Part shown: positions 1 to 5,225 of the stretch, in pieces
Position numbering within the stretch: position 1 is the stretch's first letter
How the letters are laid out: each line of letters opens with the position of its first letter
DNA from: a virus
Taxonomy: Duplodnaviria; Heunggongvirae; Uroviricota; Caudoviricetes
Strand: one strand, 5' to 3'
IMG/VR virus record: IMGVR_UViG_648276652_000011
Location: 1 to 5,225 of that record
DNA length: 5,225 nt
Notes under the pieces: generated by a model
Databases searched by the model: none
What the model saw: the letters and a program-made list of their open reading frames with translations, nothing else
Told to the model about the DNA's origin: nothing
Program-made: the position numbers and the translations under genes

Positions 1-739
<739 letters not shown>

Positions 740-762
740 GTGCGGTTTTACCGCATACCAAT

Positions 763-785
763 AACGCTTCACTCGAGGCGTTTTT
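763..785 (+). terminator. Putative hairpin plus T5 in the ea10-cIII intergenic region (attenuator or terminator-like)
   Basis: cgcttc (765-770) pairs with gaggcg (775-780) including one G-U pair; loop actc; followed by ttttt (781-785). It lies 17 nt upstream of the cIII SD aggag (802-806). Confidence 0.35.
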
Positions 786-811
786 CGTTATGTATAAATA
801 AGGAGCACACC

Positions 812-976
812 ATGCAATATGCCATTGCAGGGTGGCCTGTTGCTGGCTGCCCTTCCGAATCTTTACTTGAACGAATCACCCGTAAATTACGTGACGGATG
901 GAAACGCCTTATCGACATACTTAATCAGCCAGGAGTCCCAAAGAATGGATCAAACACTTATGGCTATCCAGACTAA
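812..976 (+). CDS. cIII: CIII, inhibitor of FtsH-mediated CII degradation (54 aa)
   Basis: [54 protein letters not shown] matches lambda CIII as I recall it. SD aggag at 802-806, 5 nt before ATG 812. The ORF-track start at 740 is an upstream extension. Confidence 0.9.
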   Translation: MQYAIAGWPVAGCPSESLLERITRKLRDGWKRLIDILNQPGVPKNGSNTYGYPD

Positions 977-1088
977 ATTCACTATCGCCACTTTTATTGG
1001 CGATGAAAAGATGTTTCGTGAAGCCGTCGACGCTTATAAAAAATGGATATTAATGCTGAAACTGAGATCAAGCAAAAGCATTCACTAA
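945..1088 (+). CDS. kil: Kil, host cell-division (FtsZ) inhibitor (47 aa)
   Basis: [47 protein letters not shown]. The start overlaps the cIII 3' end by 32 bp and the 3' end overlaps the long gam start, as in lambda. SD aggag at 931-935. Confidence 0.9.
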
Positions 1089-1459
1089 CCCCCTTTCCTG
1101 TTTTCCTAATCAGCCTGGCATTTCGCGGGCGATATTTTCACAGCTATTTCAGGAGTTCAGCCATGAACGCTTATTACATTCAGGATCGTCTTGAGGCTCA
1201 GAGCTGGGCGCGTCACTACCAGCAGATCGCCCGTGAAGAGAAAGAGGCAGAACTGGCAGACGACATGGAAAAAGGCCTGCCCCAGCACCTGTTTGAATCG
1301 CTATGCATCGATCATTTGCAACGCCACGGGGCCAGCAAAAAAGCCATTACCCGTGCATTTGATGACGATGTTGAGTTTCAGGAGCGCATGGCGGAACACA
1401 TCCGGTACATGGTTGAAACCATTGCTCACCACCAGGTTGATATTGATTCAGAGGTATAA
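1043..1459 (+). CDS. gam: Gam, RecBCD/SbcCD nuclease inhibitor (138-aa long form; GamS from the internal ATG at 1163)
   Basis: The translation matches lambda Gam as recalled ([23 protein letters not shown]... [10 protein letters not shown]). The internal ATG at 1163 ([13 protein letters not shown]...) has a strong SD aggag at 1151-1155 and gives the 98-aa GamS form. Confidence 0.95.
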
Positions 1460-1464
1460 AACGG

Positions 1465-2250
1465 ATGAGTACAGCACTCGCAACGCTGGCTGGGAAGCTG
1501 GCTGAACGAGTCGGCATGGATTCTGTCGACCCACAGGAACTGATCACTACTCTTCGCCAGACGGCATTTAAAGGTGATGCCAGCGATGCGCAGTTCATCG
1601 CATTGTTGATCGTCGCCAACCAGTACGGCCTTAATCCGTGGACGAAAGAAATTTACGCCTTCCCTGACAAGCAGAACGGCATCGTTCCGGTGGTGGGCGT
1701 TGATGGCTGGTCCCGCATCATCAATGAAAACCAGCAGTTTGATGGCATGGACTTTGAGCAGGACAATGAATCCTGCACATGCCGGATTTACCGCAAGGAC
1801 CGTAATCATCCGATCTGCGTTACCGAGTGGATGGATGAATGCCGCCGCGAACCATTCAAAACCCGCGAAGGCAGAGAAATCACCGGACCGTGGCAGTCGC
1901 ATCCCAAACGGATGTTACGGCATAAAGCCATGATTCAGTGTGCCCGTCTGGCCTTCGGATTTGCGGGTATCTATGACAAGGATGAAGCCGAGCGCATTGT
2001 CGAAAATACCGCATACACTGCAGAACGTCAGCCGGAACGCGACATCACTCCGGTTAACGATGAAACCATGCAGGAGATTAACACTCTGCTGATCGCCCTG
2101 GATAAAACATGGGATGACGACTTATTGCCGCTCTGTTCCCAGATATTTCGCCGCGACATTCGCGCATCGTCAGAACTGACACAGGCCGAAGCAGTGAAAG
2201 CTCTTGGATTCCTGAAACAGAAAGCCACTGAGCAGAAGGTGGCAGCATGA
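1465..2250 (+). CDS. bet: Bet (Red-beta) single-strand annealing recombinase (261 aa)
   Basis: [64 protein letters not shown]... I recognise this as lambda Red-beta; it starts 5 nt after the gam stop. Confidence 0.97.
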
Positions 2251-2927
2251 CACCGGACATTATCCTGCAGCGTACCGGGATCGACGTGAGAGCTGTCGAA
2301 CAGGGGGATCATGCGTGGCACAAATTACGGCTCGGCGTCATCACCGCTTCAGAAGTTCACAATGTGATAGCAAAACCCCGCTCCGGAAAGAAATGGCCTG
2401 ACATGAAAATGTCCTACTTCCACACCCTGCTGGCTGAGGTTTGCACCGGTGTGGCTCCGGAAGTTAATGCTAAGGCGCTGGCCTGGGGAAAACAGTACGA
2501 GAACGACGCCAGAACCCTGTTTGAATTCACTTCCGGCGTGAATGTTACTGAATCCCCGATCATCTATCGCGACGAAAGTATGCGCACCGCCTGCTCTCCC
2601 GATGGTTTATGCAGTGACGGCAACGGCCTTGAACTGAAATGCCCGTTTACCTCCCGGGATTTCATGAAGTTCCGGCTCGGTGGTTTCGAGGCCATAAAAT
2701 CGGCTTACATGGCCCAGGTGCAGTACAGCATGTGGGTGACGCGAAAAGATGCCTGGTACTTTGCCAACTATGACCCGCGTATGAAGCGTGAAGGCCTGCA
2801 TTATGTCGTGATTGAGCGGAATGAAAAGTACATGGCGAATTTTGACGAGATGGTGCCGGAGTTCATCGAAAAAATGGACGTGGCACTGGCTGAAATTGGT
2901 TTTGTATTTGGGGAGCAATGGCGATGA
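2247..2927 (+). CDS. exo: Lambda exonuclease Exo (Red-alpha), 5'-3' dsDNA exonuclease (226 aa)
   Basis: [64 protein letters not shown]... I recognise this as lambda Exo. ATGA start/stop overlap with bet (2247-2250). Confidence 0.97.
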
Positions 2928-3106
2928 AGCATCCTCACGATAATATCCGGGTAGGCGCGATCACTTTCGTCTACTCCGTTACAAAGCGAGGCTGGGTATT
3001 TCCCGGCCTTCCTGTTATCCGAAATCCCCTGAAAGCACAGCGACTGGCTGAGGAGATAAATAATAAACGGGGGGCTGTATGCACAAAGCATCTCCTGTTG
3101 AGTTAA
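2924..3106 (+). CDS. orf60a: Lambda Orf60a-like small protein (60 aa)
   Basis: The second ATG (2924) overlaps the exo stop as ATGA and has the SD gggag (2911-2915) at 8-nt spacing. It gives 60 codons, with the same size and position as lambda orf60a. The ORF-track start at 2918 is too close to the SD. Confidence 0.75.
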
Positions 3107-3270
3107 GAACGTGTATCGAGATGGCACATAGCCTCGCTCAAATTGGAGTCAGGTTTGTGCCAATACCAGTAGAAACAGACGAAGAATTTCATACGTTAGC
3201 CGCATCCCTTTCACAAAAGCTGGAAATGATGGTGGCGAAAGCAGAAGCAGATGAGAGAGACCAGGTATGA
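3079..3270 (+). CDS. orf63: Lambda Orf63-like small protein (63 aa)
   Basis: The 63-codon ORF overlaps the orf60a 3' end by 28 bp, as I recall for the orf63/orf60a arrangement in lambda. SD gggggg at 3069-3074. Confidence 0.8.
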   Translation: MHKASPVELRTCIEMAHSLAQIGVRFVPIPVETDEEFHTLAASLSQKLEMMVAKAEADERDQV

Positions 3271-3350
3271 CAACCACTGAATGCATTTTTCTGGCAGCGG
3301 GCTTCATATTATGTGTGCTTATGCTTGCCGACATGGGGCTTGTTCAGTGA
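3267..3350 (+). CDS. Candidate 27-aa hydrophobic (single-TM-like) peptide, MTTTECIFLAAGFILCVLMLADMGLVQ; speculative
   Basis: The ATG overlaps the orf63 stop as ATGA (3267-3270), with purine-rich gagagag 8-9 nt upstream. The stop TGA (3348-3350) overlaps a GTG (3347) in the frame of the next ORF. It is below the ORF-track size cutoff and is read by eye only. Confidence 0.3.
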   Translation: MTTTECIFLAAGFILCVLMLADMGLVQ

Positions 3351-3562
3351 CACCTCAGCAAGAAAACGCCCTTCGCAGCATTGCCCGTCAGGCTAATTCT
3401 GAAATCAAAAAAGCCAGACAGCAGTTTCCGGATAAAAACGTCGATGACATTTGCCGTAGCGTACTAAAGAAGCACCGCGAAACGGTAACGCTGATGGGAT
3501 TCACACCGACTCATTTAAGCCTGGCGATCGGCATGTTAAACGGCGTCTTTAAGGAACGGTGA
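3281..3562 (+). CDS. Hypothetical small protein (93 aa from ATG 3281; alternatively 71 aa from GTG 3347)
   Basis: Open frame with a helical-looking, charged C-terminal 70 aa (TPQQENALRSIARQANSEIKKARQQF...). There is no SD before ATG 3281, but a G-rich SD (gggg, 3336-3339) lies 7 nt before GTG 3347. The N-terminal 22 aa are Cys/His-rich (CAYACRHGAC). The start is uncertain. Confidence 0.5.
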   Translation: MHFSGSGLHIMCAYACRHGACSVTPQQENALRSIARQANSEIKKARQQFPDKNVDDICRSVLKKHRETVTLMGFTPTHLSLAIGMLNGVFKER

Positions 3563-3582
3563 ACATGAAAAGCAAAATCATC

Positions 3583-3608
3583 AGGGAGCTACAGGCTCCT
3601 TTTTTATT
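3583..3608 (+). terminator. Rho-independent terminator-like hairpin
   Basis: Stem ggagc (3585-3589) pairs with gctcc (3595-3599), loop tacag, followed by tttttt (3600-3605). Flanking pairs extend the stem to 7 bp. Confidence 0.6.
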
Positions 3609-3660
3609 ATTCGCATTTACCCTCAAGCGTATTAACCAACAATTCAGGGATTAATGAAAG

Positions 3661-3882
3661 ATGGCAGACATCATTGATTCAGCATCAGAAATCGAAGAAT
3701 TACAGCGCAATACAGCAATAAAAATGCGTCGTCTGAACTACCAGACTGTATCCGCAACTCATTGTTGTGAATGTGGCGATCCGATAGATGAGCGAAGACG
3801 CCTGGCCGTTCAGGGTTGTCGGACTTGTGCAAGTTGCCAGGAAGATCTGGAGCTTATCAGTAAACAGAGAGGTTCGAAGTGA
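3661..3882 (+). CDS. TraR/DksA-family C4 zinc-finger protein (73 aa), lambda Orf73-like RNA polymerase-binding regulator
   Basis: The 73-aa protein has CxxC...CxxC spacing (C-E-C-G ... C-R-T-C-A-S-C) near the C-terminus, and its size is typical of TraR-like proteins. Confidence 0.8.
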   Translation: MADIIDSASEIEELQRNTAIKMRRLNYQTVSATHCCECGDPIDERRRLAVQGCRTCASCQEDLELISKQRGSK

Positions 3883-4250
3883 GCGAAATTAACTCTCAGG
3901 CACTGCGTGAAGCGGCAGAGCAGGCAATGCATGACAACTGGGGATTTGACGCGGACCTTTTCCATGAGCTGGTAACACCATCGATTGTGCTGGCACTGCT
4001 GGATGAACGGGAAAGAAACCAGCAATACGTCAAACGCCGCGACAATGAGAACGAGGATATTGCACTAACGGTAGGGAGGCTGCGCGTTGAGCTGGAAGGC
4101 AAACACAGGCGCATTACTGAGCTGACAATGTGGATTAAGCGACTGAGTTCCTCTCTCAAAAACGCAAAACCAGACAGCAAGTTGCCGGATGACGCAATGA
4201 TCTGGCTAAATAATGAAGGGCTTACCAGTATAGAGGATATTTTACGATGA
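3879..4250 (+). CDS. Ea22-like (ead/Ea22 family) N-terminal-domain protein (123 aa), GTG start
   Basis: N-terminus MSEINSQALREAAEQAMHDNWGFDADLF carries the QALREAAE signature I associate with Ea22-family proteins. The GTG start overlaps the upstream stop (GTGA, 3879-3882); SD agagagg at 3866-3872. Confidence 0.65.
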   Translation: MSEINSQALREAAEQAMHDNWGFDADLFHELVTPSIVLALLDERERNQQYVKRRDNENEDIALTVGRLRVELEGKHRRITELTMWIKRLSSSLKNAKPDSKLPDDAMIWLNNEGLTSIEDILR

Positions 4251-4894
4251 GCACTTTTACCATGGAATGGCTACAAAATACGATTACCAGTATTGAGTCA
4301 GCACGAGATGAAATGCCATTCGGACTCGACAACGATCAAGCACACATGCTTACAGCATTTAAAATCGCTCTCGCCTCACTGGAACGCGAGCGGGTTCGCC
4401 ACGAGCATGCCAAATGGTCTGACTCCACATTTGGCTGCGTTGGCCCCATTGGTCCACTGAAACACCTCTCAAAAGAGGCTCTGGAAGCCGCAGCCGAACC
4501 TGACGATCTCAGCGAGTGGGCTGATATGCAGTTCCTGTTGTGGGATGCACAGCGCCGTGCTGGTATCAGTGATGCTGAAATTACCGCTGCTATGGAAAAT
4601 AAATTGAAGATCAACATGGAGCGCCAGTGGCCTGAACCAAAAGATGGTGAGCCTCGTTTGCACATTAAAGAACCCGGCAACTCTCCGGTAACTCCGGATG
4701 GTTGGATAAGCTGTAGTGAGCTAATGCCAGATGATGGTCAGCACGTAATTATTTTATGTGATGGCGCATTCGTTCTTTATGCGCAATATCGAGACGGAGA
4801 GTTTTTCGATATTGTCCGCAATGGTGATGAATTTTTCGAAACACAGAGTCGCAATGTAACCGACTGGATGCAACTACCAGAACCTCCTCTTTGA
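4247..4894 (+). CDS. Phage protein with DUF550-like (MazG-like NTP pyrophosphohydrolase-type) N-terminal region and DUF551-like C-terminal domain (215 aa)
   Basis: ATGA overlap with the upstream gene; SD gagga at 4233-4237. The C-terminus ...VTDWMQLPEPPL resembles the DUF551 signature. The N-terminal region has acidic helices KEALEAAAE and SEWAD plus NKLKINMERQ, resembling MazG-type metal-binding motifs. Confidence 0.7.
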   Translation: MSTFTMEWLQNTITSIESARDEMPFGLDNDQAHMLTAFKIALASLERERVRHEHAKWSDSTFGCVGPIGPLKHLSKEALEAAAEPDDLSEWADMQFLLWDAQRRAGISDAEITAAMENKLKINMERQWPEPKDGEPRLHIKEPGNSPVTPDGWISCSELMPDDGQHVIILCDGAFVLYAQYRDGEFFDIVRNGDEFFETQSRNVTDWMQLPEPPL

Positions 4895-4996
4895 TAGCTA
4901 AGCTTATACATATCTTTTACATCAGCAATCTATTGTTAATCTCCAATCAATGTTACGTTGTCATCTCTCTCATGCTTTGGAGGTAGTGATATGTCT

Positions 4997-5225
4997 TGGA
5001 TTTGCCCCTATATTTCCAGACACCTGTTATCACTTAACCCATTACTGGCTTGCTGCCGTAGATATTCCCGTGGCGAGCGATAACCCAGTGCACTATGCGG
5101 ATGCCATTCGTTATAATGCTCGAACGCCTCTGCAAGGTTCTTTGCTGCCGTTAACCCGTCTGGTTTGGGCATGACACTGATGTAGTCACGCTTTATCGTT
5201 TTCACGAAGCTCTCTGCTATGTCCG
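4997..5225 (-). mobile_element. IS2-like element (IS3 family), terminal inverted repeat and 3' portion; partial, continues off the right edge
   Basis: The + strand reads tggatttgcccctatatttccagaca from 4997, which is the reverse complement of the IS2 end (...TCTGGAAATATAGGGGCAAATCCA) as I recall it. The adjacent transposase C-terminus matches IS2. Confidence 0.88.
5008..5225 (-). CDS. insD: IS2-like transposase OrfB (InsD), C-terminal 72 codons (partial)
   Basis: The - strand encodes ...[71 protein letters not shown] with stop at rc 5008-5010. The frame is open to the window edge. The 'M' in the ORF track is an internal GTG. Confidence 0.9.

Follow-up and report, generated by a model that had tools for sequence, protein, structure and literature searches.

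A short zinc-finger gene in an enterobacterial prophage raises two questions: whether its product acts on the host RNA polymerase as TraR does, and how the surrounding phage operon brings the gene to expression. We analyzed a stretch of 5,225 nt (hereafter, the window; positions 1 to 5,225 of IMG/VR record IMGVR_UViG_648276652_000011), which carries the lambda-type leftward (pL, delayed-early) operon of an enterobacterial prophage, spanning ea10 through the exo-xis region, with IS elements on both sides (Table 1). Combining the ORF list, Pfam matches, and the annotation of relatives, the plus-strand gene order reads ea10-cIII-kil-gam-bet-exo-orf60a-orf63-orf61-orf73-ea22, and its exo-xis block (orf60a-orf63-orf61-orf73-ea22) has the same order as previously described (PMC8614690).

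Table 1 Features of the 5,225-nt window and the evidence for them.
Feature	Coordinates	Strand	Evidence or remark
IS100-type element, istA end	1-217
ea10-like DUF2528 gene	371-739	+
cIII thermoregulator RNA	799-857		Rfam match
kil + gam	1043-1459	+
bet	1465-2250	+
exo	2247-2927	+
orf60a/DUF1317	2918-3106	+
Second terminator-like hairpin AGGCTGGG-TATTT-CCCGGCCT, in orf60a	2989-3020 (hairpin 2989-3009)	+	t1-lambda of Bloch et al.
orf63/DUF1382	3079-3270	+
orf61-like gene	3281-3562	+	93 codons from ATG 3281; GTG 3347 (RefSeq-style) gives 71 aa; PHROG 303, 4.7e-36
Small frame, (M)NMKSKIIRELQAPFLLFAFTLKRINQQFRD	3559-3654	+	31 codons from GTG 3559, 29 from ATG 3565
Intrinsic-terminator-like hairpin AGGGAGCT-ACA-GGCTCCTT with T-tract	3583-3611	+	stem 3583-3601, T-tract 3602-3611
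orf73, 73-aa TraR-family zinc-finger protein	3661-3882	+	ORF, Pfam PF01258, PHROG 54, identity to lambda Orf73
Ead/Ea22-like gene, 123 aa	3879-4250	+	Pfam PF13935, 7.1e-21
PF04447 dATP/dGTP pyrophosphohydrolase + DUF551 gene, 215 aa	4247-4894	+	Pfam, RefSeq annotation
IS3-family transposase	from ~4983

Its 95% protein identity and shared synteny make the gene orthologous to orf73 (also Orf2310) of bacteriophage lambda. It runs from an ATG to a TGA, and its 73-aa product is identical to lambda Orf73 at 69/73 positions, the differences being H27Y, A29T, I30V, and V49A. At the nucleotide level, window positions 3300-4097 match lambda 30177-30975 with 95.2% identity, up to a mosaic breakpoint inside the ea22-like gene (window ~4097-4105) at which the alignment collapses. 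The two loci share the place of the gene between orf61 and ea22, the GTGA overlap at its stop, and an identical terminator and small frame upstream; they differ in the downstream half of ea22 and in the next gene. RefSeq E. coli genomes label orf73 “TraR/DksA family transcriptional regulator”, and the lambda RefSeq entry (NC_001416) leaves it unannotated.

Profile searches placed the protein in the same family. Pfam PF01258 (zf-dskA_traR) matched residues 33-64 with 37.8 bits (cut-off 24.9), PHROG 54 (“DksA-like zinc-finger protein”) matched at 6.4e-26, and the TraR subfamily model NCBIfam TIGR02419 matched over its full length (1-64/64; E = 8.4e-15) but with 55.1 bits stayed just under its cut-off of 59.7. 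The best sequence match in the PDB was E. coli YbiI (2kgo, 3.8e-5), with TraR (5w1s) at 2.4e-4. Cysteines occupy positions 35, 36, 38, 53, 56, and 59; C35-x2-C38 and C56-x2-C59, separated by 17 residues, form the C4 finger that had been predicted near the C-terminus, leaving C36 and C53 as extra cysteines. The N-terminal tip reads D3-x2-D6-x-A8 (DxxDxA), and residues 44-48 read E44-R45-R46-R47-L48; six cysteines, DxxDxA, and ExxRL are all common to the window and lambda proteins. The hallmarks listed for the family in the Donaldson review (DxxDxA, a C4 finger, an acidic residue in the C-terminal helix, and ExxR(K/L); PMC8614690) are thus all present. A reading as a DNA-binding zinc-finger regulator was ruled out, as the sequence and fold matches were all to TraR/DksA proteins that bind RNA polymerase.

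Conservation followed the same residues. Across 38 aligned sequences, made up of relatives of 58-95% identity and F TraR, D3, D6, A8, C35, C56, Q60, and E64 were invariant, and C38, C59, R46, and R47 were conserved in at least 90%; conservation of the zinc ligands was also seen in a second set of 33 sequences. The acidic tip is therefore kept throughout, and cysteines that vary among homologues, the outcome named beforehand as contradicting the assignment, were not seen at the four finger positions. R46 and R47 form the arginine pair equivalent to TraR R48/R49, and E64 is the acidic residue of the C-terminal helix. As for the extra cysteines, a pair noted before in lambda Orf73, C53 was invariant in the phage subfamily (33 sequences) and absent from F TraR, while C36 was restricted to the E. 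coli group of the 38-sequence alignment. Of the four residues that differ from lambda, three (Y27, V30, and A49) are present in other members of the family.

An AlphaFold (AF2) model built on the 33-sequence alignment had helices at 8-27, 44-49, and 57-71 plus a Zn knuckle (mean pLDDT 76.5; the N-terminal helix reached only 55-66, the C-terminal helix and the Zn domain >88). The model has the TraR-family fold, in which a single long helix at the N-terminus precedes a globular Zn ribbon and a C-terminal helix, ~70-75 aa in total. The top fold match in the PDB was TraR in complex with RNA polymerase (6n57_M, prob 1.00, TM 0.54), followed by YbiI (2kgo), DksA in an rrnB P1 complex (7khi_M), TraR (5w1s_M), and DksA2, and also DksA 5vsw_M and 1tjl_A; the E-values of these matches were modest (3e-3), and the protein is very small.

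What such a protein does is established for lambda. Gopalkrishnan et al. (2022, mBio; PMC9239242) found that the purified lambda protein and DksA compete for E. coli RNA polymerase and that Orf73 inhibits rrnB P1 (IC50 ~50 nM, equal to TraR and without ppGpp) as well as rpsT P2; D3N and D6N mutants lost activity or were defective. In vivo, lambda Orf73 complemented a dksA null strain, and when expressed from pL it lowered pre-rRNA to 29% and rpsT mRNA to 45%, made the host grow more slowly, and gave a 3- to 4-fold higher phage yield (PMC9239242), although an earlier study, discussed in the same paper, had reported the opposite effect on yield. Unlike TraR, which activates thrABC, argI, rpoH P3, and tra promoters, the lambda protein gave weak activation, if any, of the three host promoters tested (PMC9239242), and it is therefore not a full functional equivalent of TraR.

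The window protein compares with these relatives in a similar way. It shares with F TraR (PDB 5W1S, 6N57) a length of 73 aa, the DxxDxA helix, CxxC-17-CxxC, the RR pair, and the glutamate of the C-terminal helix, yet the two are only 31% identical, TraR has four cysteines and Orf73 six, and the TraR gene lies in a conjugation operon whereas orf73 lies in a phage early operon. DksA has the same secondary-channel site, the same acidic tip logic, and a Zn-finger domain of the same Pfam family (PF01258); it differs in being ~151 aa long with a coiled coil and in needing ppGpp for full activity, whereas TraR and Orf73 are single-helix proteins that act independently of ppGpp (PMC9239242). E. coli YbiI and phage P2 Orf82 carry a C4 finger as in Orf73, but the likeness of YbiI is limited to residues 31-65, and P2 Orf82, which does not have the tip A8, is 5-fold weaker on rrnB P1 (PMC9239242).

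Since the window protein is 95% identical to lambda Orf73 and three of its four differences are found in family members, we expect it to work by the same mechanism, with a probability of about 0.9. The N-terminal helix bearing DxxDxA would enter the secondary channel of RNA polymerase and point towards the active site, while the Zn-ribbon domain (E-x-R-R) and the C-terminal helix would touch the rim helices as well as beta'Si3 and betaSi1, both proteobacterial insertions. From this position Orf73 would, with no need for ppGpp, destabilise the open complexes of promoters for rRNA and ribosomal proteins and so divert host resources during lytic growth. The original prediction of a TraR-like secondary-channel factor thus agrees with its lambda orthologue, for which the activity is experimental (PMC9239242); the gene call was correct, but it re-identifies a characterised lambda gene whose protein function was already known.

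Whether this copy is still in use is a separate matter. The window could be a silent relic, i.e., a decayed prophage fragment bracketed by IS elements in which orf73 is intact but unexpressed and without present function. The IS100-type and IS3-family elements at its two ends are consistent with this, as is the presence, in related prophages, of Eag, xis, and int at the site occupied here by an IS. Among complete E. coli genomes, none matched the window above 98.2%. Three observations make such a relic improbable, however: every ORF between ea10 and the pyrophosphohydrolase gene, both included, is intact, the exact Orf73 protein sequence recurs in 16 viral contigs of IMG/VR, and strain TB354 carries the same IS100 insertion in a prophage that is otherwise continuous. 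Expression of orf73 in the present host is nevertheless uncertain, because pL and N lie outside the window and IS elements bracket the segment.

The original prediction had orf73 heading a translationally coupled unit directly downstream of an intrinsic terminator. The terminator is there, but orf73 is not the first gene of a chain: between it and the orf61-like gene lies a small frame whose GTG overlaps the orf61-like stop (GTGA 3559-3562) and which ends 6 nt ahead of the orf73 ATG, its last codons (TTC AGG GAT TAA) holding the Shine-Dalgarno-like AGGGA of orf73. Across loci, an open frame of at least 28 codons reached the orf73 start in 141 of 156 distinct upstream sequences, ending 1-6 nt before the ATG. 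By its pattern of variation the small frame behaves as coding: summed column entropy was 4.06, 2.73, and 6.76 at the three successive codon positions, and codon differences from the window comprised 231 synonymous and 190 non-synonymous changes. A PHROG search returned no match for the peptide. In some Citrobacter and Pseudocitrobacter loci (L125, L135, L136, and L142), the same peptide forms the C-terminus of a full-length Orf61-like protein, and because of this the small ORF looks like what has been retained of an orf61 allele at its 3' end. The 31-aa “orf2313” detected in lambda by ribosome profiling (per PMC8614690) is probably this small frame, as length and region agree. The orf61-like gene itself is full length in the window; lambda orf61 is truncated through a frameshift caused by one extra A in a homopolymer run.

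The terminator sits within this small frame, 60 nt upstream of orf73. Its stem has 8 pairs, of which 4 are G-C, closed by the loop ACA and followed by TTTTATTATT; the centroid fold has -10.2 kcal/mol, and the stability of the 66-nt segment that holds the hairpin is ordinary (z = -0.83). The sequence is identical in lambda, where it is the predicted terminator t2-lambda (Bloch et al. 2014, Table 4; PMC4195576). Rfam returned nothing at the terminator or orf73, the cIII thermoregulator being its only match in the window. By itself, then, the hairpin is modest, and it is its conservation across the compared sequences that is evidence for more than chance.

We evaluated this conservation by detecting hairpins separately in each of 384 sequences (the window and 383 loci), which comprised 158 distinct upstream sequences. 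A hairpin with a T-tract, located at -74 to -78 relative to the orf73 ATG, was present in 124 of the 158. Altogether, 34 different hairpins occurred, and among their stems were at least five sequences unrelated to one another: GGGAGCT/GGCTCCC, GGTCGC/GCGGCC, AAAGGGAC/GTCCCTTT, AAGGCCTCT/AGAGGCTTT, and AAGGGGC/GTCCCTT. Between the lambda type and the type of the Citrobacter/Pseudocitrobacter locus L125, two neighbouring pairs differed in both arms without a shift in register (A-U becoming G-C, and G-C becoming A-U), and in an alignment of 21 sequences, pair 49-59 was C-G in 9, A-U in 7, and G-C in 2. The covariation score of this alignment was 0.189 against 0.114 in shuffles (1/500), with two registers coexisting and a slide of -1 scoring equally. 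A single-register count of covariation was mixed (~72% paired cells in each of registers 0 and -1), because lambda-type and Enterobacter-type stems pair one column apart, and for this reason we relied on the per-sequence detection. Since the stem lies in codons, two residues of the encoded peptide co-vary with it (E..A, S..R, and G..V), and the T-tract translates as Pro-Phe-Leu-Leu.

Taken on the sequence comparison, two features are new. One is that the terminator stays in the same place in enterobacterial prophages although at least five unrelated stems occur; the other is its location within a translated frame that runs up to the ribosome-binding site of orf73. Bloch et al. reported the same hairpin (3583-3601) as t2-lambda together with an overlapping promoter p1; stem covariation across genera and the location in a coding frame are unreported there.

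Terminators within ORFs are a theme of this region. The second terminator-like hairpin, in orf60a, matches t1-lambda save for one T-to-C change in the tail (PMC4195576, Table 4). A literature search for “tL3” returned only plasmid-construction papers. By the pKD46 coordinates, the orf60a hairpin (t1) is probably lambda tL3; that name was set aside for the hairpin before orf73, which is t2.

Downstream of orf73, both predicted stop/start overlaps are present: the orf73 stop (TGA 3880-3882) overlaps the GTG of the ea22-like gene at 3879 (GTGA 3879-3882), and the ea22-like stop (TGA 4248-4250) overlaps the ATG of the 215-aa ORF at 4247 (ATGA 4247-4250). GTG 3879 is supported as the true start because the Pfam Ead_Ea22 match begins at residue 2 and profile position 1. 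The N-terminal 73 codons of the ea22-like gene are lambda-like and the remainder belongs to a different mosaic module. The third gene had been called MazG-like, which holds at the superfamily level only: its PF04447 match (4.5e-42) and the RefSeq annotation of a 98.9%-identical locus agree on a pyrophosphohydrolase, and its sole sequence match in the PDB, to the MazG-like MazZ (7ody), is weak (E = 0.53).

The comparison was then extended to the downstream side, where IMG/VR and GTDB genomes gave 90 distinct contexts, 69 of them close (at least 85% protein identity) and 21 distant (56-69%). Among the close contexts, 68/69 had the GTGA overlap at the orf73 stop, and 61/69 had an Ea22-N-like ORF of at least 50 aa beginning at the overlap; the stop of that ORF was overlapped by the next start in 54/61. 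A PF04447 homologue occurred within ~2 kb in 41/69, but the arrangement of the window, with this gene immediately following an Ea22-like gene of 123 aa, in only 5/69. Of 5426 complete E. coli genomes, only 40 had at least 80% of window 3300-5000. Behind the same Orf73 allele, Ea22-like ORFs ranged from 5 to 659 codons. In distant contexts, an NTGA overlap was kept in 13/21, with an unrelated downstream protein. The orf73-ea22 coupling is thus a conserved feature, already visible in lambda, while the trio with the pyrophosphohydrolase is one mosaic arrangement among many; with 5/69 contexts, we ruled out that enzyme as an obligate partner of Orf73. Both overlaps would be expected to give translational coupling; the three-gene cassette as proposed holds only in part. 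Overlapping junctions are general in this operon (also bet/exo with ATGA, exo/orf60a, orf60a/orf63, and orf61/small frame).

Could orf73, the ea22-like gene, and the pyrophosphohydrolase gene nonetheless form an autonomous cassette, a coupled trio read from a promoter over the terminator and insulated from the upstream pL genes? The 4-nt overlaps at both junctions and the terminator directly upstream would suit such a cassette, and Bloch et al. placed a BPROM promoter p1 (-35 TCATCA, -10 TTTTATTAT) over the terminator, proposing that it explains the high orf73 and ea22 mRNA of phage Phi24B, which was well above orf61 mRNA, especially after H2O2 (PMC4195576). Read by eye, however, the p1 hexamers are poor (TCATCA 3/6 and TTTTAT 4/6 of the consensus, at an 18-nt spacer), and a sigma-70 promoter scan of the plus strand over 3400-3661, including the gap between terminator and orf73, gave no promoter-like site. 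In lambda, the region is transcribed from pL (PMC9239242, PMC8614690); by RT-qPCR, orf73, ea22, and ea8.5 mRNA was lower than that of orf60a, orf63, and orf61 (PMC4195576), i.e., genes past the terminator gave less mRNA than those upstream, and they were induced with pL (PMC4195576, PMC9239242). Together with the rarity of the trio (5/69) and the translated frame that joins orf61 to orf73, this makes an autonomous cassette quite improbable, and the idea of a self-standing transcription unit was not borne out, although p1, a weak promoter proposed from BPROM, leaves it viable for phage Phi24B.

The last alternative, that Orf73 mainly blocks initiation of host DNA replication (the “bin” phenotype, which earlier genetic work cited in PMC9239242 attributed to the block orf73-ea22-ea8.5-orf55) rather than reprogramming transcription, is very improbable, given that Orf73 from a single-copy prophage had little or no lowering effect on dnaA mRNA, that dnaA P2 and dnaA P1 required ~10-fold and >30-fold more protein in vitro than rrnB P1, and that, in the authors' view, the phenotype follows indirectly from altered transcription (PMC9239242).

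For the expression of this TraR-like factor, the most likely scheme is entry from pL, read-through with N, and a terminator that stops stray transcription. Transcription would enter from pL, and N-modified polymerase would pass the terminator before orf73, whereas unmodified or stray transcription would halt there, which may keep the host-toxic Orf73 silent in lysogens. Translation, for its part, would be chained on both sides of orf73, as the small frame reaches to the ribosome-binding site of orf73, and ea22 has its start in overlap with the stop of orf73.

More tentatively, the conserved terminator could be a translation-gated switch instead of a plain insulator, a proposal that we regard as rather doubtful but that the geometry invites, with the terminator lying within a frame that also holds the orf73 Shine-Dalgarno, be it an ORF of 29-31 codons or the tail end of an Orf61-like protein. 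In its favour, covariation of the stem is strong enough to make two residues of the peptide change together, with the remaining residues under purifying selection. Under such gating, a ribosome trailing the polymerase through the frame would open the hairpin at its 5' arm and thereby allow read-through, and the same ribosome would then re-initiate at the orf73 start; untranslated or uncoupled transcripts, e.g., from stray transcription in a lysogen, would terminate.

Overall, the comparative evidence suggests that t2-lambda has been selected as a structure across Escherichia, Enterobacter, and Citrobacter prophages. A terminator embedded in a translated frame that is coupled to orf73 would offer a testable explanation for the differences in mRNA level that set orf73 and ea22 apart from the exo-xis genes upstream, and lambda apart from Stx phages, and for how a host-toxic modulator of RNA polymerase is kept silent in lysogens. 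If translation gating were true, a growth-arresting factor that mimics ppGpp would be tied to the translational capacity of the cell.

The terminator hairpin preceding orf73, the 73-aa TraR-family zinc-finger gene, sits within a conserved translated frame. This frame is either a 29–31-codon ORF or, in other genera, encodes the C-terminal end of an Orf61-like product, and it runs as far as the orf73 ribosome-binding site. Because the stem covaries, the small-frame peptide shows paired changes at two of its residues (E..A, S..R, G..V).

In the window and in nearly all E. coli prophage loci, the orf61-like product is 71–93 aa long and extends to this small frame. The homopolymer run upstream is A6 in the window versus A7 in lambda (locus L001, about 3604–3615), and the one additional A cuts lambda orf61 to 61 aa. 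Given the longer product found elsewhere, the classic lambda orf61 looks like a frameshifted allele. Regions of orf73 identical to lambda were also found in assemblies of unrelated organisms, including Shewanella, Bradyrhizobium, Streptomyces, Paenibacillus, Helicobacter, and Segatella (loci L085–L119). The contigs concerned had low coverage, several measured about 48.4–48.5 kb, and they almost certainly entered public assemblies as contaminating lambda control DNA.

A second, terminator-like hairpin lies inside orf60a and presumably corresponds to lambda tL3. Its tail reads TCCTGTT in the window versus TTCTGTT in lambda (T-to-C), and the window scan returned no call for it. Farther upstream, a match to Rfam Lambda_thermo (cIII thermoregulator RNA; 88.5 bits) confirms that the cIII translation-control element is intact in the window prophage.

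Features located in the window, with their coordinates
Feature	Position	Strand	Remarks
IS100-type istA 5′ end	1–217	minus	Left edge
Lambda_thermo match	799–857
Terminator-like hairpin AGGCTGGG-TATTT-CCCGGCCT	2989–3020		Within orf60a coding sequence; t1-lambda of Bloch et al. 2014 (PMC4195576)
Segment with the homopolymer run	3402–3412		A6
Small frame	3559–3654	plus	Between orf61-like gene and orf73
Terminator hairpin preceding orf73	3583–3611		Predicted terminator t2-lambda (PMC4195576)
Pyrophosphohydrolase gene	4247–4894		PF04447 (dATP/dGTP pyrophosphohydrolase) + DUF551
Right-hand insertion sequence	about 4983–5225
IS2-like terminal repeat	about 4993–5018		With right-hand IS3-family fragment
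IS3-family transposase fragment	5008–5205	minus	Right edge

Downstream of orf73, the pyrophosphohydrolase gene is of a type common in the variable exo-xis region, where its position is free: 41 of the 69 distinct downstream contexts with ≥85% Orf73 protein identity carried a PF04447 homologue about 0.4–2.1 kb downstream of orf73. All PHROG matches of this gene were labelled “unknown function”. Insertion sequences lie on either side of the prophage segment, and related prophages encode Eag, xis, and int where the window has the right-hand IS3-family element.

Two “extra” cysteines, C36 and C53, have been discussed for lambda Orf73. C36 was confined to the E. coli group. Among 33 members of the phage Orf73 subfamily, with identities as low as 58%, C53 was invariant, yielding a C53-x2-C56-x2-C59 arrangement, whereas F TraR lacks this C53. 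Such invariance across the subfamily suggests that C53 may be functionally relevant rather than incidental.
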